64,000 nt of DNA from positions 10,187 through 74,186 of the IMG/VR virus record IMGVR_UViG_3300043571_000443; one strand, 5' to 3'. The position numbers and the translations under genes were made by a program. How positions within the stretch are numbered: position 1 is the first letter of the stretch; each line of letters starts with the position of its first letter. The notes under the pieces were generated by a model. The model ran no database searches. It saw only the letters and a list, made by a program, of their open reading frames with translations, and was not told the DNA's origin. The DNA comes from a virus. Shown here one piece after another: positions 4,348-52,506 of the stretch.

Positions 4348-4350
4348 GCG

Positions 4351-4440
4351 CTCCCACGGGGTGGGGTTGCTCAGGGCAAAGAATAACTCCCACGATGGTG
4401 GGGTGATCTAGCGACCGGAGCGACTCCCACCGAAGTGGGG
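4351..4440 (-). repeat. Three short-period (36-37 bp) hairpin units adjoining the CRISPR-like array
   Basis: CTCCCAC-N3-4-GTGGGG at 4351, 4387 and 4424. Confidence 0.7.
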
Positions 4441-4457
4441 CTGGGCTGCTGGGTTTG

Positions 4458-4832: not shown

Positions 4833-4931
4833 TCCACCACTGTCACCACAAATTGTCAATGTCCTGCCTACCACTATAGCACACATCCACCAACCTGGGC
4901 ACCCTATAAAAAATTCTCTGAGGGATCCACC

Positions 4932-5801: not shown

Positions 5802-6217
5802 GGCAATGGCACCCGGTCGACGGCAGACTGGGCGTCGATGGCAGGGTTGCCCTGATCGTCTTGTAGGGCAAATACTTTCCGCACGGTGCCATCCGGGTTG
5901 TATTGGGTGGCAGTGCTATTGGGGTAGTCGATCTTGAAGCGCCCCAGGGTAAAGGCTTGGGCCAGGGCCAGGGTGCTAGCAATGTCCGGGTTCACAGCAC
6001 CCACCACATCGACCCCAAGCGGCACGGCCCCAGCGTTGGCAAACCAGCGCACCTCGCCGCCTGCATCAGGTAGCTCCACTACCGCCCGCCAGATGCCGCC
6101 GCCCAGGTGGGTAGGATTTTGCAAAGCACCCAGGGTGGTGCCGTCGAATAGGCGATACTGCACCCCGCTGGTATAGCGAGAGCCCAGGATCGCAGCACTG
6201 GTGATAGTTTGGGTCAT
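5798..6217 (-). CDS. Virion-associated hypothetical protein
   Basis: Translationally coupled within the tail-fibre operon. Confidence 0.6.
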   Translation of the reverse strand: MTQTITSAAILGSRYTSGVQYRLFDGTTLGALQNPTHLGGGIWRAVVELPDAGGEVRWFANAGAVPLGVDVVGAVNPDIASTLALAQAFTLGRFKIDYPNSTATQYNPDGTVRKVFALQDDQGNPAIDAQSAVDRVPLP

Positions 6218-6516
6218 TAGGCGACTCCTATGGCAGTAATAGCGCCATCGGTGCGGGTAATGGTCTTGGTACGCACTACCGCAGGGCTGCGGGTGTAGTC
6301 AGTCTCGGTGATGCTGGTAATGGCGCCATTGGTGCGGGTGATGTCTTTGCGGTATAGCTCCGCCCCGCCATTGCTGACATAGATGCTAATCCGCGTAATA
6401 GCGCCATTGGTGCGAGTAATGGTCTTGTAGAACGGTTCAGGCCGCAAGGAGACCAAGGGCAGGACGCTGGTGGTTTCCAGGTTGCCCGAACCGTTTAGCT
6501 GGATTGCCTTTGCCAT
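6217..6516 (-). CDS. Small repeat protein (KxITRTNGAIT x3)
   Basis: Three internal repeats; coupled within the operon. Confidence 0.65.
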   Translation of the reverse strand: MAKAIQLNGSGNLETTSVLPLVSLRPEPFYKTITRTNGAITRISIYVSNGGAELYRKDITRTNGAITSITETDYTRSPAVVRTKTITRTDGAITAIGVA

Positions 6517-10400: not shown

Positions 10401-11500
10401 ATCCGATCACTAGTTGGCGCATAGCCAACGGCGCGAGGCCCAGTGCCAACGGTGATAGTGGCTACGACTGCATTAGTGACAGGATCAACCACCGATACAT
10501 TGTTAGCGCTGTTATTCGCCACATAGATCCGATCACTAGTTGGCGCATAGCCAACGGCCCGAGGCGTAGTGCCAACGGTGATAGTGGCTACGACCGCATT
10601 AGTGACAGGATTAATTACCGACACATTCTGGCCGCTTTGATTCGCCACATAGATCCGATCACTAGTTGGCGCATAGGCAACGGCGAAAGGCCCAGTGCCA
10701 ACGGTGATAGTGGCTACGACCGCATTGGTATCAGGATTAACTACCGATACATTGTTGGTGGTAAGATTCGCCACATAGATCCGATCACTAGTTGGCGCAT
10801 AGCCAACGGCGCGAGGCCCAGTGCCAACGGTGATAGTGGCTACGACCGCATTACTGACAGGATTGATCACCGATACATTGTTAGCGCTGTTATTCGCCAC
10901 ATAGATCCGATCACTAGTTGGCGCATAGCTAACGGCGAAAGGCTGAGTGCCAACGGCGATGGTGCCGGACAGTGCAATAATGCTAGCCGCTGACAGGGTA
11001 TGAGTCGTTGCACCACCAGCCACCGTGAAGCTATCGCCTACCGTTGGCGCAGTCTGAAAGGTGCCATTGCCGTTGTTGAGGTCCAGCGTAGTGCTACCCG
11101 CCAATAGGTTAGCGGCAGTCGTCCCGGCATCTACCAAAATGACTGCACAGCCACCCACGACCGTTGATGGGTCAAAGGCATAGCACCAAATATTGCCCCG
11201 ATCTCCAGCGGTTAGCAAATAGCCTACGCCGCCTGAAAAGAAAAATTGTAGGTCAGAGCTAGTCGTGTCATTGGTTTGCCTAAATTGACCTTGGCGATTT
11301 GCTTCAGTAAAAGTGCCGCCATTGCGAAAGTCGCCCCGCCAAAAAGAAACTAGGCTGCCAAGTCCTGCAAACACTAGGCTATTGTTCGGCGCTGCATCGT
11401 TAAACCAATACACTAAGCTTTGATTGGCAAGGATAGGATCAGCCGCATAGGTGGCATTCGCAGGGGTAACTTCAGCCGTCAGGGCGGTATTGACGCTCAT
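7454..11500 (-). CDS. Large tail fibre / receptor-binding protein with YVTN-type beta-propeller repeats
   Basis: 1348 aa; seven ~42-aa repeats of ATITVGTGPxAVxYAPTSDRIYVAN...NVSVxNP. Confidence 0.8.
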   Translation of the reverse strand: MSVNTALTAEVTPANATYAADPILANQSLVYWFNDAAPNNSLVFAGLGSLVSFWRGDFRNGGTFTEANRQGQFRQTNDTTSSDLQFFFSGGVGYLLTAGDRGNIWCYAFDPSTVVGGCAVILVDAGTTAANLLAGSTTLDLNNGNGTFQTAPTVGDSFTVAGGATTHTLSAASIIALSGTIAVGTQPFAVSYAPTSDRIYVANNSANNVSVINPVSNAVVATITVGTGPRAVGYAPTSDRIYVANLTTNNVSVVNPDTNAVVATITVGTGPFAVAYAPTSDRIYVANQSGQNVSVINPVTNAVVATITVGTTPRAVGYAPTSDRIYVANNSANNVSVVDPVTNAVVATITVGTGPRAVGYAPTSDRIYVANSTANNVSVINPVSNAVVATITVGTGPIAVGYAPTSDRIYVANEGNVSVVNPVSNAVVATITVGSSPFAIAYAPTSDRIYVVNFASNNVSVVNPRTNLVDAGTRARVTFAPGLTNAVAVGDALQFWGAGNKFVSARLRLASVAFPSAARLSTDLANGFASIRNTSTATFYRNLILANFNGTSSVTVNGTSIAPNAETTIGYYNIATPVFSVNVTARDLDFYYKAGTSYLIATSTTNQLFLYAFDAATVSSAPAVKATFTTNGLSASTPRHLSFTKAGSDLVLLVAGDTINLLYRFADNIFDGTGTITINGQTIAHSSGYAVPTSAALFYWLHNTTATDSLLGALYHNTVANRTVIAFVTTAGVNAYELNLDAFDGTATVNVKGTQVAPTSRQYTLPEYLSSFQIPSYTAPLALSYNSTDAANSFISGNNSRIARLNQLNRFNTVIDLLTQSYTTAPAITKTSANGALTLFTAITAFQALSILVIGASLISLRNSDGSTGYANGEFYPYAYTATDDAEGTFNEGFTLSGATAGITGTYRFTMAAGTTLTLSSKATYNDNFTVSSGATLAISQNTTIGSNLILQTGANVVAANNVGPFTLTIPYSDPGLIYDPTKIIIVSQIRFTAPNFADGSRAYAARVQSFTVASTAINTTTDAITLGNDSQGRPAAFATAAPWTQVRFSLNSGATLPTTTSNVLKDGGFYYWSDGKLFASIANIPSTPVDFTSQGSGDFTLAAETELFNVVVSGGSGLAQNLSLPNGALVRLKATYWAESGGTATSGSFLDTRDSLLVWSITGGITVGAAIGPTVLEPIHEAIVASTQIQSNKYGVLTPANTGSGLSQFAIALEGVGTLQINSNDTDGVELIQNIFLWWCWVRSTEAGIRLASFDTLEALSFTSYQAGRVEVENTNSTTPLSIAGGSITFPGSSTGIAASSYAINLNADVFGTGATTGLTSPEIRQAVGLASANLDSQLSDLTALVL
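10110..10960 (-). repeat. Near-identical ~126-bp coding tandem repeats
   Basis: Repeated ACATAGATCCGATCACTAGTTGGCGCATAG and CCAACGGTGATAGTGGCTACGAC blocks. Confidence 0.9.
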
Positions 11501-13221: not shown

Positions 13222-13316
13222 CTCCCACCATTGTGGGACATACACCATCTGGCCGAAGCACCCCCACCATTGTGGGGCCTGCACCCTCTGGCCGAGCCAC
13301 CCCCACCGCAGTGGGC
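13222..13316. repeat. Three-copy hairpin array (~39-bp period)
   Basis: CTCCCACCATTGTGGG, CCCCACCATTGTGGGG and CCCCACCGCAGTGGG, starting right after the recombinase stop codon. Confidence 0.8.
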
Positions 13317-13346
13317 AAGCTAAGGCTAGCATGAGGGGACTGCATT

Positions 13347-15844: not shown

Positions 15845-17341
15845 ATGAATGATCCATCCCTCCCTAACTACCACGACCCTGCGTTAAAAAAGCTGCAGCC
15901 AGCGCTGAAGCTATGCTTTGACGTATGGAATGGGCTCTATGGGCTCAAGGCTGACTACCTGCCCCAGGCTAGCCGGGAACCCCGGGCCGCCTACGATGAT
16001 CGGGTGAACCGGGCCGTATTCAACAACAAATACCGGGCCCAGGTGGAAAGCATCAGCGGCTTGCTGACAGCCTTCGACGTTGAGGGCTACCCGGCCAGCT
16101 TCGAGCAAGCTGAAGCGGATGGCCTATACCTGGACGGTAATGGATCCGACTGGACTAGCTTTTTACGCCAAGCGGATGAACTAGCCCTGCGGGATGGGCT
16201 AGTGTATGTGCTGACCAATAATGTGCAGCTGAGCCCGGAGGATGCCGCCACCCGCACCGCCGCCGACCGTCGCACCTACCCGCAATGGACGCTGGTAGAT
16301 CGGCGTAATGTGATCAACTGGCGGGGGGAGTTGCGTAATGGATCCATGGTGCTCACCCAGGTCACCCTTGTCATGCACCGGGATCAGACCGTTGGCAGCT
16401 ATGGATCCATCAGTGAGCCCTATTACCATACTTTTCGGCTGCTTCCGGGTGATGGCGGTGTCAGCCTGACGGTGGCCCGCATCAGTGACCGTGGGGCGGT
16501 GGATATTGTGGACGAACGCACCGCACCAGTCCAACGGATCCCGCTCCAGGCCTACCCGGATGTGACCAACCCATTCCCCCATGACGGCGACCTGCAGCTA
16601 CCGTACCTACTGAAAGCAGCCGAGCTAAACATTAAGCTATTCCGCCAAGAGTCTAGCCTAGATACAATCCAGTATCGGGTAAATGCGCCCACGGTCTATC
16701 GGGTAAGCAGCATGGACTTTACCCAGCGGCCACCGATCATTTTTGGACCCAACCATGTGATCGAGCTGATGCGGGACAGCAATACCACTGCTGCTGGCGA
16801 GGACTCGGTAGGGGTCATCGAGATTACTGGCCAGGGCATTGCTGAACTACGGGAAAGCTGCAACGAAACCCGCCGCGCCATCGACGAAGAAGGGGTAGGG
16901 TTCATTGGTGGTGGCAGTGTCCAGCGATCTGCAACAGAGGCCTACCTAGCCGCCAGCCGATCCAGTGCCAGCCTGAATGGCTATGCTAGGGCCAAAAGCC
17001 AGGCTGTCAAAGCGCTGGTGGCCGACTGGTGCCTATTTACTGGCGAAGACCCCAGTGACGTTGAAGTTGAGATGGATCAGTCTGTTCTGGAGATGCCGCT
17101 CGATGCCCAGGAGATGGGCGCATTGCTAGGCCTATGGCAAGCAGGCGCTATCGACCATCAAACCTTGCTGGAGCTATTGCGGATGGGTCGCCAGCTGCCG
17201 CCTGGTGTCGATATTGAAGAGATCATGGAGCGGGTAGCGGTGGAACGCGATGCCGCCATGCCGGGGGCGTCGGAGGTGATTAACGGGATCCTGATGCCAG
17301 CCAGCCAGCCCGGGCAACCTGAAGCTGTACCTGAAGACTGA
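15845..17341 (+). CDS. Portal protein
   Basis: Directly after terL; ~500 aa; YLPQ...E...AYDDRVNRAVF motif of DUF4055-type portals. Confidence 0.8.
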   Translation: MNDPSLPNYHDPALKKLQPALKLCFDVWNGLYGLKADYLPQASREPRAAYDDRVNRAVFNNKYRAQVESISGLLTAFDVEGYPASFEQAEADGLYLDGNGSDWTSFLRQADELALRDGLVYVLTNNVQLSPEDAATRTAADRRTYPQWTLVDRRNVINWRGELRNGSMVLTQVTLVMHRDQTVGSYGSISEPYYHTFRLLPGDGGVSLTVARISDRGAVDIVDERTAPVQRIPLQAYPDVTNPFPHDGDLQLPYLLKAAELNIKLFRQESSLDTIQYRVNAPTVYRVSSMDFTQRPPIIFGPNHVIELMRDSNTTAAGEDSVGVIEITGQGIAELRESCNETRRAIDEEGVGFIGGGSVQRSATEAYLAASRSSASLNGYARAKSQAVKALVADWCLFTGEDPSDVEVEMDQSVLEMPLDAQEMGALLGLWQAGAIDHQTLLELLRMGRQLPPGVDIEEIMERVAVERDAAMPGASEVINGILMPASQPGQPEAVPED

Positions 17342-17346
17342 CAACT

Positions 17347-18582
17347 ATGCACATTCTTGTTTTGGCGGATGCTCCGCCGATGCCGGGCCTGACAACAGGC
17401 TTCGGCAGGGTAGCGGCGCACCTATGCCAGGCTCTGGTAGATGGCGGCCACAGCGTTACCCAAGTGGCGATCAACTACCTGCAGAAGGCCCAGCATTCCT
17501 ACCCATGGCGGCTACTTACCACCAAGGCCGCTGATCCCCTTGGCAATGATCAGCTGGTGGGCCTGATCAAGCGGTTCAAGCCCGATGCCGTGGTGGGCTT
17601 CAATGATATCTGGGTATGCAATCGGTGGTTTTCTATCCTATGGGCGACCTGCAAGAACTTGGGCATCACCCAGATCCCATTCTTTGGTTACTTCCCGGTG
17701 GACTGTGCAGGCTATGAAGCCGAGCTAGCCCGGCTATTACCCCACTGGGCTGGGGTGGCCACCTACGCCCCCTTCGGGCTAGAGGTGCTGCGGGCCGCTG
17801 GCTACCAGGGCGACTGCGCCATCATCCCCCATGGCATCGAGCCACCCCTCCAGCCTAGCCGTAGCCTATTGCCAGAGCCACTTAAAGACGCCTGGGTTGT
17901 ACTGAGGACAGACATCAACCGCCCCCGCAAGCGCTATGACCTAGCCATTCAAGCCTTCTGTGAATTTGCCCAGGGCAAGCCATTGCCGCCAGAACCGGGT
18001 GCCCCCATCCTCTGGCTACACTGCGCCGACTATGGTGATGACCTGCCTGTACGGGAGTACTATGAACGCACCCTAGCCAGGACCGGCTATGCGTTCGAGC
18101 AACGGCCATTACTGCGCAGCCATACTGCTGGCGATAACCATCATCCCTTCTGCAGTGATGCCGACCTAGCGGCCATCTATGCCAGTGCTAACTGCTACCT
18201 GCAGACCAGCGATGCCGAGGGCTGGGGCCTATGCCCGGTCGAGGCTAGCCAGTACGGCGCAACCGTCATTCTAGGCAACCACTCGGTCCACGCTGACCTA
18301 TGGCCAGGGCGAGCACTTATGGTGGATCCAATTGACTCGCGCTCAGAAACCTTTGGGCTGCTGCAGATTGACAAGGCTGGTCAGGTGCGCCAGGTTAGGA
18401 CAGCGCTGGACTATCCGGTTGTCTCCAGCCATGACTACGCCAGGGCCCTAGAGCAGGCCTACAGCAACCCCGATCTATGTCAGCAATATCAGCAACAGGC
18501 CCGGGAGCATTGGCAGTCTAGCTCGTTCCAGTGGCCAGTGATTGAGCAACAATTTAGGGATTGGATCGACGGGGCACCCTAA
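17347..18582 (+). CDS. Glycosyltransferase (GT-B / GT4-like)
   Basis: TGFGRV, IIPHGI, RPRKR and EGWGLCPVEA motifs. Confidence 0.85.
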   Translation: MHILVLADAPPMPGLTTGFGRVAAHLCQALVDGGHSVTQVAINYLQKAQHSYPWRLLTTKAADPLGNDQLVGLIKRFKPDAVVGFNDIWVCNRWFSILWATCKNLGITQIPFFGYFPVDCAGYEAELARLLPHWAGVATYAPFGLEVLRAAGYQGDCAIIPHGIEPPLQPSRSLLPEPLKDAWVVLRTDINRPRKRYDLAIQAFCEFAQGKPLPPEPGAPILWLHCADYGDDLPVREYYERTLARTGYAFEQRPLLRSHTAGDNHHPFCSDADLAAIYASANCYLQTSDAEGWGLCPVEASQYGATVILGNHSVHADLWPGRALMVDPIDSRSETFGLLQIDKAGQVRQVRTALDYPVVSSHDYARALEQAYSNPDLCQQYQQQAREHWQSSSFQWPVIEQQFRDWIDGAP

Positions 18583-22774: not shown

Positions 22775-22790
22775 GGTACTGGGGTGGGGG

Positions 22791-23885
22791 TCAAGCTGAT
22801 CGCTCGATTACAGCAGATGTCCGCCAATAGTAACTTACCTGAGGATCCGCGCCTAGCGTCGTCAACGTCAAGGTGTTTGACTCTGTGTCTATAATTCCGA
22901 ACCGGTTGCCGCCATCCTTAAGATATGGAATGCAGTAGATCTTTGTACCTACAACAGCAGATGTCCGCCAATAGTAACTTACCTGAGGATCCGCGCCTAG
23001 CGTCGTCAACGTCAAGGTGTTTGACTCTGTGTCTATAATTCCGAACCGGTTGCCGCCATCCTTAAGATATGGAATGCAGTAGATCTTTGTACCTACAACA
23101 GCGGACGTTAACCAGCGATACTGTATTTCCGGATCAGCTCCTAAGTCTACTAACTCTAGCGTGTCTGACTCGGTATCTAGAATACCAAACCGATTACCTG
23201 CTATTGGGCCAAGCGAAGGATCGCCTACACTGCTAAAAGGAATGGAATAAATTTTCATTCCTACGATAGCAGATGTATTCCATGAATATATTATATTAGG
23301 ATCAAGGCCTAATCTTGTTAACATCAATGTGTTTGACTGCACATTTATAATACCAAAATGATTACTTCCAATTAGCGCTACAGATGGAATGCAATAAATC
23401 TTTGTGCCTACACTAATACATGAAGACCAATTGTAAGTTACCTGAATATTCGCAGTTAGCGTGGTTAAGGTTAACAGATCTAATGCCGTGTCTATAATCC
23501 CAAACTGGGTTGTTCCACTTGTGCCAAAAGACGGAATGCAATAAACGCTTGTGCCTACAACAACAGATGCAAACCAGTTATAACTAACCTGAGAATTAAC
23601 ATTTAGTGTAGTCAATGTTAATGAGTTTGATCCTGCATTTATAATCCCGAATTGATTATTTCCGCTTGTGGCGACAGATGGGACACAATATATCTTTGAC
23701 CCTACGACAGCAGATGTAGCCCACTGATAATCAATTTGCGTATCAACTCCTAATGTTTTTAGGCCCAAGACATTTGATTGTGCATTGATAAGACCAAACT
23801 GATTCCCTCCAGAGCCTTCAAAAGGAATGCAATAAATATCGAATTTCTCCCCCCCAAACCATACCCAGCCTAGCTGCCTACCCAT
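22791..23885 (-). CDS. Beta-propeller (kelch-like) repeat protein, probable tail or receptor-binding component
   Basis: About seven repeats of VGTKIYCIP...FGII; visibly AT-richer than its neighbours. Confidence 0.7.
   Translation of the reverse strand: MGRQLGWVWFGGEKFDIYCIPFEGSGGNQFGLINAQSNVLGLKTLGVDTQIDYQWATSAVVGSKIYCVPSVATSGNNQFGIINAGSNSLTLTTLNVNSQVSYNWFASVVVGTSVYCIPSFGTSGTTQFGIIDTALDLLTLTTLTANIQVTYNWSSCISVGTKIYCIPSVALIGSNHFGIINVQSNTLMLTRLGLDPNIIYSWNTSAIVGMKIYSIPFSSVGDPSLGPIAGNRFGILDTESDTLELVDLGADPEIQYRWLTSAVVGTKIYCIPYLKDGGNRFGIIDTESNTLTLTTLGADPQVSYYWRTSAVVGTKIYCIPYLKDGGNRFGIIDTESNTLTLTTLGADPQVSYYWRTSAVIERSA
22811..23098. repeat. Exact 144-bp tandem duplication
   Basis: 22811-22954 equals 22955-23098 (one 48-aa blade). 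Confidence 0.85.
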
Positions 23886-42753: not shown

Positions 42754-42811
42754 GTTGACGGTTCGATATGCAGGGGGTATATTGAAGGTATCGAACCACT
42801 TACACCGAGGA
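42754..42811 (+). promoter_or_regulatory. Repeated promoter cassette, copy 2
   Basis: TTGACG (42755)-17-TATATT (42778); same inverted repeat and leader. Confidence 0.8.
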
Positions 42812-42818: not shown

Positions 42819-43022
42819 ATGCCCAAGTTCATTTCCATCCAAGACGGCGCTTACCTGCTCAACCTGGCCCATATCGTCAGCATCGAGGTAAATAAAGGAT
42901 CCCTGGAAGTTACCTGCAATGATGGCCAAGGGGCCTACACCATAGATGACCCTGACGAGATGGGGACACTGATGGACGCGATCCAAATCGTGGATTCAAG
43001 CGAAGAAGGGATGCAAATGTAA
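42819..43022 (+). CDS. Small acidic protein in promoter cassette 2
   Basis: GAGGA RBS; terminator at 43051-43073. Confidence 0.65.
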   Translation: MPKFISIQDGAYLLNLAHIVSIEVNKGSLEVTCNDGQGAYTIDDPDEMGTLMDAIQIVDSSEEGMQM

Positions 43023-43058
43023 CCCACCCTCCCCACCGCTTCCCCGCAGACCCCCGGC

Positions 43059-43733
43059 CTAGCTGGGGGTTTTGCTTTGGGCCACATAGCTGAGCAGGTC
43101 CATTAACCGGCTGCCCCGCACTGGCGCGATCTGGTCCTCCAGTGGCTGATACTGGCTGATCGCCCGCATCAGCCTGTCGCTGTGGTACAAACCGCTATCG
43201 ATCTCCGTCTTGCTAAACCCCAGCGCCATTAGCCCCTCATAGGCAGCTAGAAGGCCCGTGAAGCGTTCCCGGCCTATCCACAGGGTATCTAGCTCGAACT
43301 GCACCGGGAAATGGTCTCTGCTATGGCCATCCTGGGCCCAGGGCAGCACATGTTTCTGGCCAGACTCAGCAATGACAATCGTAAACGGTGGCTCCGGTGG
43401 CTCCAGTAGCCAGCCACGGATCTGAGCTCGGGTGGGCAAGTCCGAGACTACCGGAAAGATGTCTTTGCCGATGGCCTTGGCCTCACCGATCGCAGGCGAC
43501 AGCAGCACATCGCCCTGGTACAACCGGCTCAGGGACCGGCCCCATAGCTTACTCCACTTGTCCTTGCCCTGATTCCAGTACCACAGCAGCTTCTCATGGC
43601 CGTCGATGGCACCATAGCACCGCCCGCATAGCTGGTCGGAGTCTGGGCAACGGGCCATGCTGTGGCCGGTGAAAGTGTCCTTGAGCGCCAAGGGGAAGCT
43701 GGCGGGCTTGCCGCATAGGTAGCACTCAGCCAT
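43059..43733 (-). CDS. csf1: Type IV CRISPR large subunit Csf1 (Cas8-like)
   Basis: N-terminal Zn finger CYLCG...TFT...CPDSDQLCGRC and LLEPPEPPF...SGQKHVL motifs; ATG at 43733 overlaps the cysH stop. Confidence 0.75.
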   Translation of the reverse strand: MAECYLCGKPASFPLALKDTFTGHSMARCPDSDQLCGRCYGAIDGHEKLLWYWNQGKDKWSKLWGRSLSRLYQGDVLLSPAIGEAKAIGKDIFPVVSDLPTRAQIRGWLLEPPEPPFTIVIAESGQKHVLPWAQDGHSRDHFPVQFELDTLWIGRERFTGLLAAYEGLMALGFSKTEIDSGLYHSDRLMRAISQYQPLEDQIAPVRGSRLMDLLSYVAQSKTPS

Positions 43734-44469
43734 GGTCTGCAACCTCCGGAAAGTGTTTACAAAATTCAGCCCAAAATTCTGGATGGTAGCGCCGCAGGTC
43801 ACTGAGTCGCCCCCAGTTTACGCCAGTAGTCCCGATGGGTGGCCCATTGCGCACCGTCAGCCGGTCCCGGTCGTACATGGCAGGGTAGGGCAGTCGGTGG
43901 GCGTCGATATAGCACCAAATATCCTGGGTGCTCCAAAAGCCGACCGGCGAACATACCCACAGGCCATCCTTACGCTGGTATAGCTCGCCCTTGCCCTTCA
44001 GGTACATAGCGCGGCCCCGAGACTCTTTGCGTAGCCCCCAGGCATAGCCTCGCACGCCATGGGCCTCCTGGTAGTCATCCAGCGGGCCATACATTAGCGC
44101 TGCATTAATGCGCTTGTCCAGGCCGGTCGCCATGGTGCCATCCAAGGGAATGCCATAGTCCTGGTACAGCTTCAGTAGGCTGCGGGGTGGGCATAGCTCG
44201 ATGATGTTCCAGCCCTGGCCCTGCAGGTGGTGCAATAGCTCGATGCAGTCCGGCCATTCTGCCAACGGCCCTTGGTTTACCCAGGCAAAAGGGCAGTCCG
44301 GCCATACCTGGCGGATTAAGTGAGCCATTACCAAGCTATCCTTGCCGCCACTGACTGAGCCATAGGCGTAGCGATCTGTGGCCTCCAGCCAGCGGCCAAT
44401 AACAGAAAGCGCCCGGTCAACCTTGCGGGTCAACCAGGGCGCTCGTGAGCCGGTGCCGGTGTTAAGCAA
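43726..44469 (-). CDS. cysH: CysH / PAPS-reductase-like protein of the type IV-B locus
   Basis: PP-loop SVSGGKDS, WGLRKESRGR, PVGFWS...IWCYI...LPYPAMYD. Confidence 0.85.
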   Translation of the reverse strand: MLNTGTGSRAPWLTRKVDRALSVIGRWLEATDRYAYGSVSGGKDSLVMAHLIRQVWPDCPFAWVNQGPLAEWPDCIELLHHLQGQGWNIIELCPPRSLLKLYQDYGIPLDGTMATGLDKRINAALMYGPLDDYQEAHGVRGYAWGLRKESRGRAMYLKGKGELYQRKDGLWVCSPVGFWSTQDIWCYIDAHRLPYPAMYDRDRLTVRNGPPIGTTGVNWGRLSDLRRYHPEFWAEFCKHFPEVADHG

Positions 44470-44770
44470 GCTGCATCCGCTCGCTCATTGCATCCGCAAA
44501 CCATTCGCGGATCTTGTCTTCGGCATTGTCATAAAAGCGAGTGTTGGAGTCGTCATCCCACTCTTCGTCGTTGAGGTGGGGGACGGTAAGAATGAGTCCG
44601 GGGCTATCGTACAGGTTCCCAACAGAACCCTTGTCCAGGGATCGGTAGGTGCCATCCTCAAACAGCTCAACAACGTAAGCACCGCCGCCCCAGGATGCCT
44701 TTGTGGAAGAATCAACGGTGGCCTCGAAGTCGATGGCCATGAAGTTATCGAAAGCCTTTTGAATAGTCAT
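44462..44770 (-). CDS. Small, very acidic protein in promoter cassette 3, inside the cas operon
   Basis: D/E-rich (NDEEWDDDS); own promoter. Confidence 0.7.
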   Translation of the reverse strand: MTIQKAFDNFMAIDFEATVDSSTKASWGGGAYVVELFEDGTYRSLDKGSVGNLYDSPGLILTVPHLNDEEWDDDSNTRFYDNAEDKIREWFADAMSERMQLA

Positions 44771-44777
44771 CAGTCAG

Positions 44778-44837
44778 TCCTCATAAGTGGTTTGTTCCAT
44801 GCCTTCAATATACCCCCTGCATATCGAACTGTCAACA
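44778..44837 (-). promoter_or_regulatory. Repeated promoter cassette, copy 3
   Basis: TTGACA-17-TATATT; the -35 overlaps the cas6 stop codon; CCACTTATGAGGA leader. Confidence 0.8.
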
Positions 44838-45440
44838 CTTTTCGACAAAATAGCCACAGCCTAGGCGCTGTCTACCTCCTAGCCCTTGCCGCTGGAGAGT
44901 CAGCGACGCATCCGGCGATAGGTCGGCAAAGCTTACCCCGTAGCCCACCACGGCAGCATCCTTGATCCGCAGGGTTTTGCGCTCCCCCAGTACCGGCATA
45001 GACTGTACCCCCAACCGTTCCAGCGCCTTGCCTAGGGCTATCCCGAACTCAAAAGGTGACACCTGGTCCTGGTACTGGGCTTTGATGGTCACCAGCCTTG
45101 CCTCCAGGCTAGGACATGGCTGCAGGGATGCACCCGTGAAGGTGCCTAGCTGCACCAGCGCCTTACCCACCCGCAATACTTGCCCGTCCAGGCTACCGAA
45201 TAGCTCCAGGTTGGCCAGCTCAGTCCGCACCCCTAGCCAGCTTTCGCTACCCAGTTGCACCCAGCCCTGGCGGTCCGGGATACCGTTGATCGTCTTCAGC
45301 GACCAGGCCAGCTCCTTTAGCCCCGGCAGGCGTTCCACCAGAGCGCTATAAAGCCGGTAGCCATGGTCGGCGGGTATCCTATCGCCCTGCACCGGCCAAG
45401 CTAGCTGTATCCAGGTAGGCGGTGTGGACGGGCATGGCAC
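44832..45440 (-). CDS. cas6: CRISPR-associated endoribonuclease Cas6 (Myxan / I-B-like)
   Basis: LAWPVQGDRIPADHGYRLYSAL N-terminal motif; C-terminal Gly-rich loop GLGGRQRLGCGYF; probable GTG start at 45440. Confidence 0.85.
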   Translation of the reverse strand: MPCPSTPPTWIQLAWPVQGDRIPADHGYRLYSALVERLPGLKELAWSLKTINGIPDRQGWVQLGSESWLGVRTELANLELFGSLDGQVLRVGKALVQLGTFTGASLQPCPSLEARLVTIKAQYQDQVSPFEFGIALGKALERLGVQSMPVLGERKTLRIKDAAVVGYGVSFADLSPDASLTLQRQGLGGRQRLGCGYFVEKC

Positions 45441-46107
45441 AGCGGGCTTTGTTGGCTGATAGCCAGGCGGGGGGTCGCCAGCCCCAGTCGCGGATGGCAA
45501 TATCAATCGGTCGGTCCCGGGGCAGGTGGACGGCGGGGATGGGTCGCATAAGTTCACCGTTTGGCCCCCATAGGTGCCAGTCTTGGTCATGGTCCTCTAC
45601 CTCCCAGTTGGTAACTTGCCCGTAGCCATGGGCGCGTTTCTTGCCTAGCCCAGTACAGCCTTGCAATAATGCCGCGATGCCTTCCCGGTCGCCCTGGCAG
45701 TACCAGGTGATTGTCGGTGCCAGCCGCACAAACAAGGGCAGGTCGTAGGCTTTCTCCGCCCCCTGACTGGTATCCCACTTTGCCTTGCGCTTCCCCCAGG
45801 CCGGTGGTGGGCTATCGATCCCAGGTGCCCAGCGCTTCCTAAATTTGCTAACCGACTCATTGCGGTAGGTGTAGCACGGACTAGAGGTTTGCCAGTACCA
45901 ATCCTCGCCCAGCCAACCCTTAGCCAGTGGCATGTGTTCATCCACTACCGGGCGGCTAGCTTCTACGTCCTGGGCGCTAGGGTTGGGGGCCGCCATGCCC
46001 CGGGCATCGAGGATCAACCACTCCAGCAGGCTAGCCAGATCAGGACTCCAGTCATCAAAGACGGCAATGCCCGACGATAGCCGGGCGGTGACTCGCAGGT
46101 TAGCCAT
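45379..46107 (-). CDS. csf3: Type IV Csf3 (Cas5 group)
   Basis: LRVTARL RAMP start, WYCQGD...LGKKRAHGYGQV Gly loop, MRPIP, WRPPAW. Confidence 0.8.
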   Translation of the reverse strand: MANLRVTARLSSGIAVFDDWSPDLASLLEWLILDARGMAAPNPSAQDVEASRPVVDEHMPLAKGWLGEDWYWQTSSPCYTYRNESVSKFRKRWAPGIDSPPPAWGKRKAKWDTSQGAEKAYDLPLFVRLAPTITWYCQGDREGIAALLQGCTGLGKKRAHGYGQVTNWEVEDHDQDWHLWGPNGELMRPIPAVHLPRDRPIDIAIRDWGWRPPAWLSANKARCAMPVHTAYLDTASLAGAGR

Positions 46108-47263
46108 TGAGCAAACCCTTCAGCTCGCTGGACTCCTGGGCCTGGGCTAGAAATTCCTGGTAGACGCTCAGGTAGTCCTGATAGGCATGGTGGGCCTCCT
46201 GAGCGGCGCTGGATAGCGTCTGGCTGCCAGTAGCTAGCGATAGGAAATGGCCGCGCTCCTGGCCACGCTGATACCAAAATTCTAGCGACACCAACCCATT
46301 GCCGCGGTTAGCCTTGCCGCCGATATAGGGACTTTCGGCAAAGCGCAGTAGGGTATCGACTACCCAGCCAGTCTCGATGGCGGTGGTGTGCAGATCCCAG
46401 CGGCTATAGAGCCTGGAACCCGCCATGATCAGCCGGTCGCTGGCGATCATCTGGTCAGACTTTTTGGCCTTATCCTCACCCTTAGCCTTTGACTTGGCCT
46501 CACCCAATAGGCTCATCTGGCCTTCCTCCGTACCGCCTGGGAGGAACTTTTGCAACGCTGGATCGTGGGTACTATCGCGGCGGGTGGTTTGGTCTACCGT
46601 CAGGTACTGGGTCCAGTTGCGCAGCATCTTGCGCAGGTAGGGCAGGTGGTCTGCCTTGGCCTGGCGGTAGACTTCAACCTGCTCAGCCGTAGGTGGCTCA
46701 AACGGATTAGCTGTTAGCCTGTCTTTGTACTCCAGTAGTTCCTGCAGCCTGGGCAGTACATCTGGCGGCAATAGGCCGGGAAATTCCCGGTAGATCAGCT
46801 CCGCCGACTCGTAGCACAGCAGATACGCACTACCCACCGCCAGTCGGCCATGGACCATCTGGGCATTCTTCACCCCAAATACCCCGGCAGGCTTGGCCGT
46901 ACCCAGCACCGACAGCCAGGGCATCAACTGCCGGATGCGGGTGTCCAGGTCCATATCGTTGGCGGTGCTGCCATCAATGCGGCCGCCAGCAAATAGGGTG
47001 TGGTGAACATCTGGCGATACCTGCAGGGCCAGCGCATCCAGCACACTAGCCATGCCACGGCGGCGTAGGATACCATTCCGCAGCGCATTGCCAGAATAGA
47101 CAAAGCAGGAGACCGGGTTCCCCTCCAGGTCCAGCAGCTTGGCCGTCTTGAGGTTACTGACATTGCCTGCTACCTCGCCAATGTGGGACAGCGGGCTTTG
47201 CAGGGTCACCTGGCAGTGCAAGGTGATCCGCTGCCGATCATGGATATCGTAAGCTTCAAACAT
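46100..47263 (-). CDS. csf2: Type IV Csf2 (Cas7 group backbone)
   Basis: TLQSPLSH, YSGNALRNGILRR, LFAGG, TTRRD, IGGKANRGNG. Confidence 0.85.
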   Translation of the reverse strand: MFEAYDIHDRQRITLHCQVTLQSPLSHIGEVAGNVSNLKTAKLLDLEGNPVSCFVYSGNALRNGILRRRGMASVLDALALQVSPDVHHTLFAGGRIDGSTANDMDLDTRIRQLMPWLSVLGTAKPAGVFGVKNAQMVHGRLAVGSAYLLCYESAELIYREFPGLLPPDVLPRLQELLEYKDRLTANPFEPPTAEQVEVYRQAKADHLPYLRKMLRNWTQYLTVDQTTRRDSTHDPALQKFLPGGTEEGQMSLLGEAKSKAKGEDKAKKSDQMIASDRLIMAGSRLYSRWDLHTTAIETGWVVDTLLRFAESPYIGGKANRGNGLVSLEFWYQRGQERGHFLSLATGSQTLSSAAQEAHHAYQDYLSVYQEFLAQAQESSELKGLLNG

Positions 47264-47771
47264 CGGTGGTTACCTCTACGTCGATAGCATCGTCTGGCGC
47301 ATCCTGGCCTAGCGCCCGGTCTTCCTCAAAGCGCAGGCGGCACAGCACCTGAATGATAGCCGCCCGGGTCCGGCATAGCTCAAGCACATCCCACTCGGTA
47401 AAGCCGTCCTTGGCGATCTGCTGCAGCAAGTCCCGCCAGCCGACAAAGACTAGCGCCTCATCCTGGGTCAGCTCCTGGATCTCGCTCAGGTCAGCGTTTA
47501 CCCGTAGGATGCGCTGCTCTGGCTGCACGATGCCGGTCAGTACCGCTGGCCGTAGGTGGCTGATCAAGGCATTGACCAGGCGTTGTAGGTAGTCCTCCAG
47601 CGTGGTGGATACCTCAGCGCTATTCTGGATAGTGGACTCCAGAAAAGTCCAGGTCTTGGTGCCCATGGCTGGACTTTTGGCCCGGTCGCGGCACTTGAAC
47701 ACCCAATAGCTAAGGGCTGCCGCTAGCCCATAGGCGCTATCGGAGGCATTGGAAAAACCGAATTGACTCAT
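47256..47771 (-). CDS. Type IV-B small subunit (Cas11-like)
   Basis: All-helical ~170 aa protein coupled upstream of csf2; TATAAT on the minus strand at 47791-47796. Confidence 0.55.
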   Translation of the reverse strand: MSQFGFSNASDSAYGLAAALSYWVFKCRDRAKSPAMGTKTWTFLESTIQNSAEVSTTLEDYLQRLVNALISHLRPAVLTGIVQPEQRILRVNADLSEIQELTQDEALVFVGWRDLLQQIAKDGFTEWDVLELCRTRAAIIQVLCRLRFEEDRALGQDAPDDAIDVEVTTDV

Positions 47772-47885
47772 AATGCTTGACAAAACTGCCATTATAGTAT
47801 CACAACCCTGGCCAGCCACGACAAAGCCCGCCAGGTGGCCAGCGGGCTGGGGTGGGGGAGTGGGGTGGAGGGGGAGTGTCCTCTT

Positions 47886-48197
47886 TTACTCAAATACGAC
47901 TCGCCGCATCTCCTCTTGCACACCAAGCATTAGTTCTAAAGCTTGGTCAAATGTTCGATTTACTCTGCCCATGCGCTGACGGACATCTGGCTCAACTTCA
48001 GACCCCAAGGCCCTTTTTGCCAATAAATCGAAGATAGCTTCTTCCAAAAGCGCTTGAACGCTAGTATTCTCCTGAGAAGCTATTTCCCGCAGCTTGACGG
48101 AGACCTCTGGATCAAAGCGACCAGCTATCATCTTTTTGTTTCGTCTAGCTTTGTTGGCATCAACATCAAGCATGAAATACAGCTCCATCAGAAACAA
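47886..48197 (-). CDS. Ribbon-helix-helix regulator
   Basis: IAGRFDPEVSVKLREIASQENTSVQALLEEAI. Confidence 0.65.
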   Translation of the reverse strand: MFLMELYFMLDVDANKARRNKKMIAGRFDPEVSVKLREIASQENTSVQALLEEAIFDLLAKRALGSEVEPDVRQRMGRVNRTFDQALELMLGVQEEMRRVVFE

Positions 48198-49413
48198 AAG
48201 TTAGAATTTCGGTCATGTCAGTCAACATCACCCTGTTCTTTTTGGCCATGTTATTCATCCTTGCCATGTTGGGATTTTGGGCCTGCTGAATGCGCCTAGA
48301 GGCATAGGCCTTGTCGTAGAGCGAGTAACCCGCTTGCGTGAAAACACTTTCAACAATGCAAGTAACCGGCAGGATCTTTTTTGTAGAAACATCCCGATAG
48401 TTGGGAGTCATGACAGTGCAAAGCCCTTTGCCCTTTTGAGCCGCTGCACAATTCCTGGCTATGCCTGCCATCGATCTTGCCCACAAGTCAAATTCCATAT
48501 TGGCTATATCGTCAGACCGATCCGAGTACTGGTTGACCACCATGCCATAGTAGGGAATGTCCATCACGATGTAATCAACGTCAGCCACGGGTAGACCTAG
48601 CCTAAGGTCGTTCTGCTGAATCTGATCTGCATAGCGACCCCGGGGGGAAAGGTCGAAGCATCGCAAGTCAATGTCCCATTGGTCGCCAACCATCCATTGA
48701 GCCCGGTTTTCCCAGACGTTTATAATCTGGCCGCTACCCGCCATCGGTGCGACTACCTTAGCGCCCGGAAAGGTGTAATACCAAAGGCAATTTGCGTAAA
48801 TATCCCCTGGGATATAGCCATGGGAATGATCATTCTCCGGCAGCCGATCAAAAGCAACTTGAGAAAAGTTCCAGTTGTCAGTAGGCTTTATGATCGGGCT
48901 AAACTCAGGCTCTTTGCCGGTGCGCGGGTTCAGGTACAAAGGGATATTGTTCTCTATCTTGTACTGCTTGACCACGTTGGTGACAACGGCTGCAGTTGGC
49001 TTTGCCTCTGACGTAAGCACAGCCTCAAGCACCTCTGCCTTTTGCTCTTGACTTAGACCAGATGTAGCTATCGGACGAACAGAGCCTTCAGATAAGCCCA
49101 GCTTATCAATATTGGCTTGAATGATTACAGGATCGGCGTTTTTGGTGACAATTGGCACCGAGTTAACTGTGTCTGCGAACGCAATTGATCTGTTGACATA
49201 GTTGCTGCCTAAGTTCCATCTTTCTTGGCAATAGGCTTCAAAGGTTGTAAACCCCAGGTCTTGATAATGCCGATCGTCCCGGATCTCCTTTAAGGCCATG
49301 GCAAGAATATACAGCTTGCCGATTGCTTCCCCAATGTGATCCTCAAGCTGCTTTAGCCGGTCTTGCTTGCTTAAGCCTGCCCCTGGCGGCAGTTGAGCAA
49401 AAGTCATACTCAT
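48166..49413 (-). CDS. DNA methyltransferase-like protein with N-terminal helical domain
   Basis: VVAPMAGSG (motif I variant) and MDIPYY (DPPY variant); N-terminal LKEIRD...FTTFEAYCQERW phage domain. Confidence 0.6.
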   Translation of the reverse strand: MSMTFAQLPPGAGLSKQDRLKQLEDHIGEAIGKLYILAMALKEIRDDRHYQDLGFTTFEAYCQERWNLGSNYVNRSIAFADTVNSVPIVTKNADPVIIQANIDKLGLSEGSVRPIATSGLSQEQKAEVLEAVLTSEAKPTAAVVTNVVKQYKIENNIPLYLNPRTGKEPEFSPIIKPTDNWNFSQVAFDRLPENDHSHGYIPGDIYANCLWYYTFPGAKVVAPMAGSGQIINVWENRAQWMVGDQWDIDLRCFDLSPRGRYADQIQQNDLRLGLPVADVDYIVMDIPYYGMVVNQYSDRSDDIANMEFDLWARSMAGIARNCAAAQKGKGLCTVMTPNYRDVSTKKILPVTCIVESVFTQAGYSLYDKAYASRRIQQAQNPNMARMNNMAKKNRVMLTDMTEILTFVSDGAVFHA

Positions 49414-51047
49414 TCTGCGTAGTCCTCCGGGTTCTGCTCTTTGCTGATCAGAAACGGAGAAGGAAGCATTCTGGCCTTGACGTAAGTAGGGGAACCGTAA
49501 ACCCTTACAAAGGCATCGCCAGGACAGAACGTTGTAGTTTGACCTGCTGCATAATCATTACCTTCTAGGGCTTTGATCGCCATCGGTTTAGCGCCATGCC
49601 TCATGATGATCCGAGTGTTGCAGTAGTTCACAATGTTGTCAGGTATCTCGGTAAATGCCTGGACACAGAAGAACGAACCTACGTGCTTAGACCTGCCTTT
49701 CCGGGTGATCTCCTCAAAAGCTTTGACAGCAATTTTCCTTAAAGACTCCCCGCCATTAAAGATGTCCTGAGCCTCGTCGATGATATTGGCGATCCATGCC
49801 TCGATCTTGCCGCTGGCCCTTCCCTTAAGCTGGAAGTTAAGGAGAGTCACGGTAAACATTGCATATTCAGACGAAGAGCAATTGGTGACGTTGATGACAT
49901 TAATCCTTCCAGCTTGAAACACCTCAGAATTTTCAAGGAAGTTAGAGTAGTTCTTTTTCTGGATCTTGAGAATACTGGAAGATCCCGCATTGTCCCTATC
50001 AATCCACTTTGGTACCCGGCAAGGCAGCTTATAAGCAGTCGCCAAGATAGCTTGGTGGACATTAGCCCCCTTGAAAATCCCTCGACCCATCTCAGTAAGC
50101 TCTCTACCTCCGTTCTTTTCCCTGGTTACAGTATTGTTGAACCATTCCATGAAGTCCTGGAGAGACCAATATTGATCTTTGTGGTCTTCCGCATAGGCAT
50201 CAAACAGCAAGCCAAAAACAGCCCGCTGCTTGTCGTCGCTATCTCCCGGGAACAGGCAAGTTTCCAGAAGAAACTCTCGGTTAACCTCCGAAAAAGGAAT
50301 GCTGATCACGTTTTCGCCTGGCTTAGGATCGCCAAGTGTCCACATCTGGACAACCTCTTCAGGAAATCCAGCCGGATCTGGCCCAAAATCGTTAGGACTC
50401 GTCAAATCCTGATAGTCAGGCTTATGATCGAGCATAAATACACAGTGGCCGGGATAGGTGCCATTAGCTTCAAACCCATTCAGAACAGATACTATTCGGC
50501 CGACTGTCTCCGTTTTACCGCTGCCAATGGTACCCGCAACTATCGCATTATGGTCAATGACCCGTTTATTAAGCGCTACAGGAATTTCAGTGCCGTCAAT
50601 ATGCCCGATGACGTTAGAAGCCTTGGCCTTAGGAAGCCTGAGAGCAACTGTTACATTTAACTCGCAGGCCTTTACCGCCTTCAATCCGTCCTTTGGACGG
50701 TAAAGTATAGGGGAAGCAACGCCGTCCACAATCATCCCAATAGGTTCCGTCACATACATCTGGACAGTGCTGCCAAGAAAACTTTGCTCTAGCTTTCCAG
50801 CGGCTACTCTGCTCATGGCTGCTGTTAATCTAGGATCTTTCCGGTCCAGTCCACCCAACGGCAAGTTCCTGTTAGGTTCTTTAACGACTAAAACCCAAGT
50901 GTCCTTGTCGCTAGAGATCTGCAGAAAAGTGTTGACAGGAATAAAAACATTGGACTTTTTGTCAAAAGACAATAGTTTTATGACTGCAGCATCAGTACCT
51001 TCTTCGTCAGACCAAACAATCAATGCGTTTAATGGATCAGAAGACAT
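49410..51047 (-). CDS. herA: HerA-like (DUF87) ATPase
   Basis: Walker A AGTIGSGKT, LDHKPDY, Walker B IIDEAQ, arginine finger RKGRS. Confidence 0.8.
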   Translation of the reverse strand: MSSDPLNALIVWSDEEGTDAAVIKLLSFDKKSNVFIPVNTFLQISSDKDTWVLVVKEPNRNLPLGGLDRKDPRLTAAMSRVAAGKLEQSFLGSTVQMYVTEPIGMIVDGVASPILYRPKDGLKAVKACELNVTVALRLPKAKASNVIGHIDGTEIPVALNKRVIDHNAIVAGTIGSGKTETVGRIVSVLNGFEANGTYPGHCVFMLDHKPDYQDLTSPNDFGPDPAGFPEEVVQMWTLGDPKPGENVISIPFSEVNREFLLETCLFPGDSDDKQRAVFGLLFDAYAEDHKDQYWSLQDFMEWFNNTVTREKNGGRELTEMGRGIFKGANVHQAILATAYKLPCRVPKWIDRDNAGSSSILKIQKKNYSNFLENSEVFQAGRINVINVTNCSSSEYAMFTVTLLNFQLKGRASGKIEAWIANIIDEAQDIFNGGESLRKIAVKAFEEITRKGRSKHVGSFFCVQAFTEIPDNIVNYCNTRIIMRHGAKPMAIKALEGNDYAAGQTTTFCPGDAFVRVYGSPTYVKARMLPSPFLISKEQNPEDYAE

Positions 51048-51049
51048 GG

Positions 51050-52156
51050 TTATTTCCCTCTAAAATCGTCACTGTCAATCAAATCGAAAGCCTGGCCAGG
51101 GTTATGTTCCATCACCACTGACTCAAGCCTGGCCTGCACACTACTCCTGTCATGGCAGCCATCTAGAAAAGCATCTACATGGTCAAGCAAGAAAGGAATC
51201 TCGTGTCCAGGCGTATCAGAACGCTCCCCGTACATCATTGCCAACGCCCAATGCAGCTGATCAATGCGACACTCGAAACCGAAATACTTAGACTGCCCTG
51301 TAGTTGGATTACCTGGACGATACACACCCCTGCAATATTTGGCGGGCACCCGCTCCATCCATGCAGCCTTGTTCTTAGACGAAGCCCAGGTTTTATTCCT
51401 TTTCTGAAGCAGAGTCCGGCAATCCGTTATGATGTAAGCCTCTCCATCTTTAAGCACCTGCCCAGAAATCTGCTCCTCAGGAGAAGAGGCAGATAAATTC
51501 TTGATCACACCAACCACACGCTTGCCAGACTTCAAGATTTTTTCTGTCAGCTTTTCCCCATCTGGCTGAGTAATCAAATTCTGAGTAAGGATGGGGCCGT
51601 CTACAATAACCGACTGGCTAGAACAGTTAAGAGCCAGCTCCCTCTCTTTGTACTCTCGGAACGTGTTAGGCCACGACCTGTCTTGAATGGTCAACGACTC
51701 AATCAACTGATCAAAGGAAAAACCTTTTTTGCCAGCTAAAGCTGGGGTCGCCTGCGCTCTAAACACTTGAGGGTCAGACATGCTAGTGGTGTACCCTATG
51801 CCAGCGACAATAACCTCATAAAACTGCCCAACCAAAGTCTGAATCAAGGGACTGTCGGTCGCATCTATTGCAAAAAGATCGTCCCTATACTGCTGAATTT
51901 CAGGATCGTAGTAGTCAAACCAATCTTGCAGGTTGCAAAGAAATCCAACATCAGGCAAAGAATCCTTAGAAGATTCGTTCCACTGATCTGGGGTCATAAA
52001 GCAACCCTCGACAAAATGCCTCATCTCTGCCAATGCAGGCTGCGACCTTTCAAACAAATCCAGTACTTCTGCGGTCTGATAATGCAACGGATCGTTGTAA
52101 ACGTCGTCAGTAATGTCTTTGCAGCCTGCAAGAATCTTTGAAAACTCAGACGCCAT
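51050..52156 (-). CDS. nurA: NurA-like nuclease
   Basis: FAIDAT, VIVDGPI, VVGVIKN and IPFLLDHVD motifs; directly upstream of herA. Confidence 0.65.
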   Translation of the reverse strand: MASEFSKILAGCKDITDDVYNDPLHYQTAEVLDLFERSQPALAEMRHFVEGCFMTPDQWNESSKDSLPDVGFLCNLQDWFDYYDPEIQQYRDDLFAIDATDSPLIQTLVGQFYEVIVAGIGYTTSMSDPQVFRAQATPALAGKKGFSFDQLIESLTIQDRSWPNTFREYKERELALNCSSQSVIVDGPILTQNLITQPDGEKLTEKILKSGKRVVGVIKNLSASSPEEQISGQVLKDGEAYIITDCRTLLQKRNKTWASSKNKAAWMERVPAKYCRGVYRPGNPTTGQSKYFGFECRIDQLHWALAMMYGERSDTPGHEIPFLLDHVDAFLDGCHDRSSVQARLESVVMEHNPGQAFDLIDSDDFRGK

Positions 52157-52251
52157 CTATAAAACTCCAGTCTGCGTACTGTCAACAAAGTCATGCTAAC
52201 ACAACTAAGCTTAAAGTTGGCGGCTATTATTTGGATTTTATAACTTTTGGG

Positions 52252-52506
52252 TTCCCCCACCCCTGTGGGGCCTGCACCATCTGGTTGAACCACCCCCACC
52301 GCAGCGGGGCAGTTAACGCCCTTCAGCAGGACACACCCCCACCCCGTGGGGCCTCTGAAAAGCTACCGATCCACCCCCACCATCATGGGACACCATAACC
52401 CTGTAGGAGTCACCCCCACCCGGTGGGGCACAGGAGCTAAACCGATCAACTCCCACCGCAGTGGGGCCTTTATCCCGAGTGACTCACCCCCACCAGCGTG
52501 GGGCCT
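52252..52506 (-). repeat. Seven-unit hairpin array (period about 37-43 bp) with I-E-like repeats and short linkers
   Basis: CACCCCCACC-N2-3-GTGGGGC(C) units at about 52254, 52291, 52334, 52372, 52411, 52448 and 52485, with non-identical linkers. Confidence 0.8.

Follow-up and report, generated by a model that had tools for sequence, protein, structure and literature searches.

An intact type IV-B CRISPR-Cas operon variant with its own Cas6 in a tailed-phage genome that also carries two CRISPR arrays

Type IV-B CRISPR-Cas loci normally have neither a cas6 gene nor a CRISPR array (PMC7038947, PMC12669027, PMC11656645), and their function was listed as unknown in 2024–2025 (PMC11656645, PMC12669027). 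Twelve IV-B loci with a Cas6 have been recorded as rare exceptions, and no arrays, mini-arrays or palindromic repeats were reported near IV-B loci in the same study (Pinilla-Redondo et al., 2020, PMC7038947). Here we describe a phage operon that shares with those twelve loci both IV-B gene content and a Cas6, and differs from the loci of that study in that its genome does carry arrays. The operon lies in a stretch of 64,000 nucleotides (nt), referred to below as the window, that spans positions 10187–74186 of the 74,186-bp IMG/VR virus record IMGVR_UViG_3300043571_000443; positions are those of the window unless given as genome coordinates. A first-pass annotation, made from the letters of the window alone, had proposed a type IV-B-like effector operon with its own Cas6, and the background it assumed, that IV-B usually lacks cas6 and arrays and that its function is open, agrees with the publications cited above.

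Three described systems frame the comparison. The Csf complex encoded on a plasmid of Mycobacterium sp. JS623 (PDB 7JHY; PMC7937560) has the same composition, with csf1, cas11, csf2, csf3 and a cysH-like gene whose product has no catalytic cysteine, and in both cases there are no helicase, nuclease or adaptation genes. Unlike the JS623 locus, the operon described here includes a Cas6, belongs to a tailed phage and not to a plasmid, has two arrays elsewhere in its genome and is widely divergent in sequence. The IV-B locus of Fuxivirus, a Bathyarchaeia virus, is likewise virus-encoded and array-associated, with no adaptation module and no protospacer found (PMC10848311). It differs in that Fuxivirus is an archaeal virus with a single-spacer mini-array beside the locus and no cas6 mentioned (PMC10848311), whereas the phage has two arrays of 5–6 spacers, a Cas6 and a second Cas module. 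Type IV-A systems carry out transcriptional interference guided by CRISPR RNA (crRNA), with spacers acquired in trans from a host I-E system (PMC11656645). The phage system would resemble them in its proposed Cas6-matured guides, nuclease-free binding and host-borrowed adaptation, but it has no DinG, uses a Cas6 of another family and includes Cas11 and CysH.

Seven co-oriented open reading frames (ORFs) on the minus strand occupy positions 43059–47819. The first-pass annotation had the genes in their correct places and ended the operon at 47771; its 5' end in fact falls at 47792–47819. In order of transcription, the operon encodes the type IV small subunit Cas11 (47256–47819, with a likely ATG start at 47792; typeIV_Cas11, 1.9e-5), the type IV Cas7 protein Csf2 (46100–47263; Csf2_0_IV, 4.9e-40; TIGR03115, 3.2e-9, below the equivalog cut-off), the type IV Cas5 protein Csf3 (45379–46107; Csf3_0_IV, 2.2e-42; TIGR03116, 7e-14) and a Cas6 of the Cmx6 family (44832–45590; PADLOC Cas6, 1.2e-48; TIGR02807, 6.7e-46; PF09559, 5e-47). 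These are followed by orf102, a small acidic protein without a significant family match (44462–44770), a cysH-like gene for a CasCysH-type PP-loop enzyme (43726–44469; PAPS_reduct, 1.5e-10) and csf1, the type IV large subunit or small Cas8-like protein (43059–43802; Csf1_0_IV, 2.9e-27; TIGR03114, 6.6e-10). The cas profiles were taken from PADLOC, which supplied the Cas11 match, and CCTyper, and the equivalogs from NCBIfam; the matches to the NCBIfam Csf1, Csf2 and Csf3 equivalogs were significant and all under the curated cut-offs. Csf1, Csf2, Csf3, Cas6 and PAPS_reduct profiles thus all gave significant matches, and the co-oriented, overlapping csf/cas6/cysH operon that had been proposed is present with all seven genes, each with a profile or structure match except orf102.

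An AlphaFold2 (AF2) model of Cas11, of moderate confidence (predicted local distance difference test, pLDDT, 66), had chain g of 7JHY, the type IV-B Cas11, as its best structural match (VIA-align Z 9.0, root-mean-square deviation 3.5 Å over 116 residues; runner-up Z 4.0), and the protein is 61–84% identical across nine related phage loci. For Csf2, of which 325 homologues were found, a profile built from 14 of them matched the type IV-B Csf2 of 7JHY best among PDB entries. The N terminus of Csf1 bears clustered cysteines (CxxC, then C, then CxxC). Nine homologues of the cysH-like protein all have the PP-loop motif SGGKDS and share no conserved C-terminal cysteine, as in the IV-B CysH described with a PP-loop and without the catalytic cysteine (PMC8175902).

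Overlaps of 8 nt join cas11 to csf2, csf2 to csf3 and orf102 to cysH, and also cysH to csf1 if the latter begins at Met24 (43733), which is probably its true start. The cas6 gene probably runs from 44832 to 45392 only and would encode about 186 aa, since most homologues are 180–215 aa long and the Pfam match begins at residue 61; this core overlaps csf3 by 14 nt. Compared with near relatives, which are 93–97% identical in these genes at the nucleotide level, the six cas genes have ratios of nonsynonymous to synonymous substitution (dN/dS) of 0.06–0.18 (csf2 0.06, csf3 0.10–0.12, cas6 0.15, and 0.07–0.11 for both the cysH-like gene and csf1), which indicates that they are maintained by purifying selection. 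No Cas1, Cas2, Cas3-HD or DinG-type Helicase_C_2 was recognised anywhere in the 74,186-bp genome while positive controls were detected, so that the lack of cas1, cas2, cas3 and dinG claimed for the window holds for the whole record. The operon itself gave no PADLOC helicase match (RecD was not searched separately). Judged on gene content and on profile and PDB matches, the locus belongs to subtype IV-B, with Csf1, Csf2, Csf3, Cas11 and an adjacent cysH-like gene that lacks the catalytic cysteine. It is called a variant because a cas6 inside the operon and two arrays in the genome break the usual trait of the subtype, the absence of both. We regard it as nearly certain that the phage carries a true type IV-B variant, undamaged and equipped with a Cas6 of its own.

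The phage origin of the DNA, already proposed from the window, is borne out by its genes for a large terminase, portal, major head protein, tape measure, head-morphogenesis protein and DnaB helicase, and by direct terminal repeats of 127 bp in the virus record. An integrase is encoded just outside the window, so the phage is probably temperate. Two weak hints point to a cyanobacterial host: the closest terminase in reference genomes (57% identity) lies on a contig of a cyanobacterial metagenome-assembled genome, and one Csf2 homologue carries the label Spirulinaceae cyanobacterium. The operon DNA had no match among GenBank phages. In its immediate family, the genome (G000) is collinear over nearly its whole length with that of a near relative, G001, whose terminase is 98% identical. 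The operon sits in a swappable island (42963–52252) that holds unrelated genes in G001 and is partly different in a further relative, G004.

The Cas6 of this operon scored 156.7 bits against TIGR02807 (cas6_cmx6; curated cut-off 98.85), the family of the type I-MYXAN Cas6. His10 and the C-terminal glycine-rich loop are invariant in 20 sequences, which suggests that the predicted catalytic motifs are intact. Identity to cellular Cmx6 proteins reaches 42% at most. In a maximum-likelihood tree, a single branch (support 90/86) parts 15 IV-B-linked Cas6 proteins, among which this one falls, from 71 cellular-type Cmx6, the latter classed as non-IV-B solely by the absence of tblastn matches to the Csf proteins of this operon. 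Such a split argues for an old and specific association of Cas6 with IV-B rather than a recent capture, and from its sequence the protein looks dedicated to this subtype. The earlier suggestion that the operon had recruited a Myxan-like Cas6 was therefore right as to the family, whereas "recruited" does not suit a separate, deep IV-B-linked lineage. A complex prediction for Csf2 with Cas6 scored 0.00, which gives no verdict and counts as evidence neither way.

Genes for this Cas6 were found in the near relatives and in several other lineages, inside the IV-B operons of other phage contigs and at varying positions. The operons of the wider family also vary in other ways. A second flavour, seen in L008, L009, L011, L020 and L054, has a divergent cysH (25–29% identity), which in L011, L020 and L054 is followed by an extra protein of 230–255 aa; two of these extra proteins had a Coq4-like Pfam match, that of L054 just above the cut-off and that of L011 below it.

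Two CRISPR arrays are present in the genome. Array B, with its leader, occupies 4417–4885 on the minus strand (array 4417–4835) and has five full 36-nt repeats at 4458–4782, a degenerate first repeat near 4805–4835, degenerate trailer hairpins at 4417–4455 and spacers of 35–37 nt. Array A lies outside the window, at genome positions 6052–6450 on the plus strand, with the same 36-nt repeat and leader and five spacers. Together the arrays hold 5–6 distinct spacers each, of 33–37 nt. The leader of about 55 nt is common to both, though the genes on its far side differ, and contains an extended -10 element that reads into the array (near 4872–4880 for array B). Each repeat folds into a 12-nt 5' flank, a 7-bp stem, a tetraloop and a 6-nt tail. 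The 5' flank is missing from the first repeat and the 3' tail from the last, which fits a functional unit composed of tag, spacer and hairpin.

Spacer content has changed between close relatives. The arrays occur at the same places in G001, G002 and G003 with mostly other spacers, and the leader-side spacers differ between the four genomes, while the trailer-end spacer of array A is common to G000 and G001 and another spacer of array A to G000 and G003. This is the pattern expected from polarised acquisition, which must occur in trans given that neither Cas1 nor Cas2 is encoded by the phage. Arrays A and B can thus be taken as real: their repeats are regular, their spacers unique, a leader precedes each, and spacer turnover among relatives is polarised.

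Upstream of the window, at genome positions 1566–4609, lies a second Cas module, which is flanked by short-period hairpin clusters. It is I-E-like and consists of a PD-(D/E)XK-like ORF, Cas6e (2210–2821), Cas7e (2917–4170) and a short Cas5e (4163–4609), with no Cas8, Cas11 or Cas3 recognised in it. The Cas6e-Cas7e-Cas5e module is conserved in G000, G001 and G002, and a search for more distant phages with the I-E-like Cas7e returned G001 only. The hairpin stem and tetraloop of the phage repeat presumably resemble those of I-E repeats. When the first 10 kb of the genome, including array A and this module, was compared with Rfam, no family of CRISPR repeats was recognised.

A distant relative, the complete 89.7-kb phage G008, has IV-B with Cas6, no Cas6e and no Cas1, and its IV-B operon contains a two-repeat mini-array (45940–46046) and a solitary repeat (46495–46530) of the same family as its five-repeat array at 17192–17540. 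From their sequences, these in-operon repeats support a Cas6-to-array link in that phage. The cellular Cmx6 genes, too, adjoin arrays with 36-nt repeats that form a tetraloop hairpin of a geometry like that of the phage repeat.

It is plausible, if a little short of an even chance, that the Cas6 described here processes phage-array transcripts into guides for the Csf complex. Several observations weigh against this. Both arrays are at least 38 kb from the operon, within which there is no repeat. Array A lies 1.4 kb downstream of the I-E-like module and is co-oriented with it. The collinear relatives G001 and G002 keep both arrays and have neither csf2 nor a Cmx6-type cas6; the arrays consequently do not depend on the operon, and they co-occur with the I-E-like module in all three genomes and with IV-B in one of the three. 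The claim that Cas6 processes the hairpin arrays of its own genome is thus sound as regards the arrays, while the link to Cas6 is weakened by the I-E-like module and by the two relatives that have arrays and no operon. Nor does repeat sequence tie the arrays to this enzyme: the phage repeat is unrelated to the cellular Cmx6 repeat (9/36 identities, shuffle p 0.53), and similarity to the G008 repeats was not significant with register and strand allowed for (p 0.065 to 0.6). The main array of G008 adjoins a TnpB/Cas12f-like gene and may for that reason belong to it, and another phage, G007, has IV-B and Cas6 with no detectable array. No spacer target was found in the phage's own genome or in about 160 retrieved loci, except the shared array spacers, nor was any found for arrays A and B in GenBank phages (plasmid collections were outside this search) or, for the core sequences of two leader-side spacers, in IMG/VR. 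Two further points concern IV-B at large. In the wider IMG/VR phage clade (55–67% identity) the gene order is the canonical cas11-csf2-csf3-cysH-csf1 without cas6, and in L009 (67%), which is rearranged with duplicated csf3, cysH and csf1 sets, cas6 is likewise missing; cas6 is therefore a minority feature, absent from most relatives in this phage IV-B clade. Finally, the RNA bound by the IV-B complex of known structure was heterogeneous and not of CRISPR origin (PMC7937560).

Much of this would be expected if the arrays served the I-E-like mini-Cascade or the host, and the IV-B operon with its Cas6 were separate cargo of the island that uses other RNA. In the likely form of this explanation, Cas6 cuts host Cmx6-type CRISPR transcripts and the Csf complex captures or sequesters the host crRNAs, for counter-defence or to borrow guides; scavenging or sponging of crRNAs has been proposed for IV-B (PMC8175902, PMC7038947). 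The tighter pairing of the arrays with Cas6e than with IV-B speaks for it, as do the placement and orientation of array A, the presumed likeness of its hairpin stem and tetraloop to I-E repeats, the replacement of the island in G001 and its partial difference in G004, and the array-less G007. The array dimensions speak against a simple I-E assignment. Typical I-E arrays have 29-nt repeats and spacers of 32–33 nt, and 36-nt repeats with variable spacers of 32–40 nt are atypical of that subtype. A host source is also not evident, as none of the genomes searched, one for each of 185,579 species, contained the repeat core and tail, and the long-lived, IV-B-specific Cas6 lineage and the in-operon repeats of G008 suggest that in some members at least the substrates are encoded by the phage. 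We consider this explanation, the main rival, possible but doubtful.

Cas12f/TnpB-like proteins of 467–627 aa are encoded directly beside arrays of 5 to 28 repeats in related IV-B phages (L017, 17722–19605; L020, 16339–18210; L023, 14188–16056; L136, 17781–19184), and in L017, L020 and L023 gene and array are a few kb from the IV-B operon, which has no cas6 there. The arrays of these three were rejected as IV-B arrays, each directly following a Cas12f/TnpB-like gene for about 620 aa. The gene content of these contigs suggests that in this clade another minimal effector with an array, either I-E-like mini-Cascade or Cas12f/TnpB-like, is often found in the same genome as IV-B; in the 2025 classification, a comparable pairing on a plasmid joins IV-B to an inactivated V-B variant (PMC12669027). 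These associations hint that IV-B may use guides produced for another system in the same genome.

Another possibility is that both Cas6 enzymes read one hairpin family, so that the I-E-like and IV-B modules share a crRNA pool and each Cas6 seeds its own complex. In I-E systems, Cas6 stays on the hairpin as a subunit of the complex. The same is true of IV-A (PMC7038947). A shared pool would fit the presence of two Cas6 genes in the genome and of a single stem family (CCCCAC/GTGGGG) at 47 genome sites with two tail classes, about 35 of them outside full array repeats. It is a special case of array-programmed IV-B, the explanation that we favour, and its likelihood, which we judge to be low, is counted within that of the favoured one.

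The hairpins outside the arrays deserve mention in their own right. Seven short-period hairpins of the same stem family, with tails GTG..TC, lie at 52252–52506 on the minus strand, at the start of a 9-kb accessory block of which the operon forms the end; the cluster has 4–10 units in near relatives and is kept in G001, which has no operon. Other clustered or solitary hairpins occur in the window at 3572–3626, 13224–13331, 60423–60504 and 63411, and at genome coordinates 213–640, 2829–2866 and 4619–4846. These hairpins have periods of 37–43 nt and variable tails, and some units are duplicated together with a linker. They could be Cas6 sites, repeat mimics like RNA anti-CRISPRs (PMC10651486) or short-guide regulatory RNAs (bioRxiv 10.1101/2024.10.29.618823).

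Short-period clusters at operon junctions, including that at the head of the accessory block, are also what would be seen if the Csf complex assembled on non-CRISPR RNA, as the Mycobacterium IV-B complex did, and worked with the CysH-like enzyme in a role that was not guide-programmed, with Cas6 serving as a structural cap or as a processor of phage mRNA at dispersed hairpins. The heterogeneous RNA in the solved complex and the lack of cas6 in most relatives of this phage clade favour this possibility as well. Against it stand the purifying selection on Cas6, its intact predicted catalytic motifs and the repeats inside the G008 operon, and we consider it quite improbable.

If the phage arrays do program the complex, the following scheme would apply, in which every step from Cas6 cleavage of the arrays onward is inferred. 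The Csf2 backbone with Cas11, Csf3 and Csf1 would form a functional type IV-B ribonucleoprotein, accompanied by the CysH-like PP-loop enzyme. Cas6 would bind hairpin-repeat transcripts, here most likely those of the two 36-nt-repeat arrays, and cut at the 3' base of the stem, giving guides of about 72 nt made up of a 5' tag of 6–8 nt, some 36 nt of guide sequence and a 3' hairpin, on which Csf2, Cas11, Csf3 and Csf1 could assemble. The complex would then bind complementary nucleic acid without cutting it, and might act by blocking transcription or by handing the target to the CysH-like enzyme. New spacers would be supplied in trans by host Cas1-Cas2, and the likely use would be to compete with other mobile elements or to silence host genes. 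The self-contained, nuclease-free system that the first-pass annotation envisaged is retained in part: there is no nuclease or helicase partner, but the phage is not self-contained for adaptation, since spacer gain needs the Cas1-Cas2 that its genome lacks. Taken as a whole, a IV-B system programmed by phage arrays through a IV-B-specific Cas6, with host-renewed spacers, a CysH-like enzyme acting on guide-selected nucleic acid and a crRNA pool perhaps shared with the I-E-like mini-Cascade via a second Cas6 on the same hairpin, is a tentative and somewhat unlikely combination.

Within the operon, orf102 stands apart from the cas genes. Directly after the cas6 stop, at 44807–44835 on the minus strand, is a sigma-70-like sequence that is the best promoter match in the region (11/12 positions). 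It falls within a 43-nt element (44794–44836) that is 100% conserved in L004, L005 and L056, with several copies per locus, and has an inverted copy at 42754–42796. The promoter role of the element is inferred from its sequence; cysH and csf1 would be transcribed from this promoter as well. In L005, an identical 43-nt element is followed by two other small ORFs in place of orf102, which marks orf102 as an exchangeable moron-type cassette rather than a core cas gene. Its dN/dS is 0.43. A family search with orf102 returned no match, and all of its Atlas matches were below 0.8. The AF2 model, built from the single sequence, was too poor for a fold search (pLDDT 54.6), and a GIY-YIG match was discounted (E 0.044, under the Pfam cut-off). 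The inverted copy of the element precedes a 67-aa ORF (42819–43022, plus strand) that converges on csf1, and the G001 breakpoint lies inside this ORF.

Upstream of the operon and on the same strand is a block of low guanine-plus-cytosine content (0.47–0.48; 47886–52156) that encodes a ribbon-helix-helix antitoxin-like protein, a methyltransferase-like protein (weak match), a HerA-type ATPase and a 368-aa protein without assignment. Near relatives differ here, so we take the block to be separate cargo of the same island. Elsewhere in the window, four to five iteron-like repeats of 21–22 nt, each an inverted-repeat core followed by a C-run, are found at 56336–56441 near the DnaB region and are possibly a replication origin. 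Two large ORFs contain in-frame tandem repeats, of 126 nt at 10109–10964 (ORF 7454–11500) and of 144–147 nt at 22781–23802 (ORF 22791–23885), which are probably repeat domains of structural or fibre proteins.

Type IV-B is a CRISPR subtype without a known RNA partner or function, which reviews published up to 2025 present as array-less and perhaps incapable of target recognition (PMC11656645, PMC12669027). The phage described here joins, in one small genome, an intact IV-B operon, a Cas6 that looks dedicated to it and two arrays with spacer turnover, and so makes the question of a IV-B guide directly testable. If IV-B is indeed programmed by the phage arrays, their transcripts would provide the first defined IV-B guide RNA, and the view that the subtype has no target recognition would be overturned.

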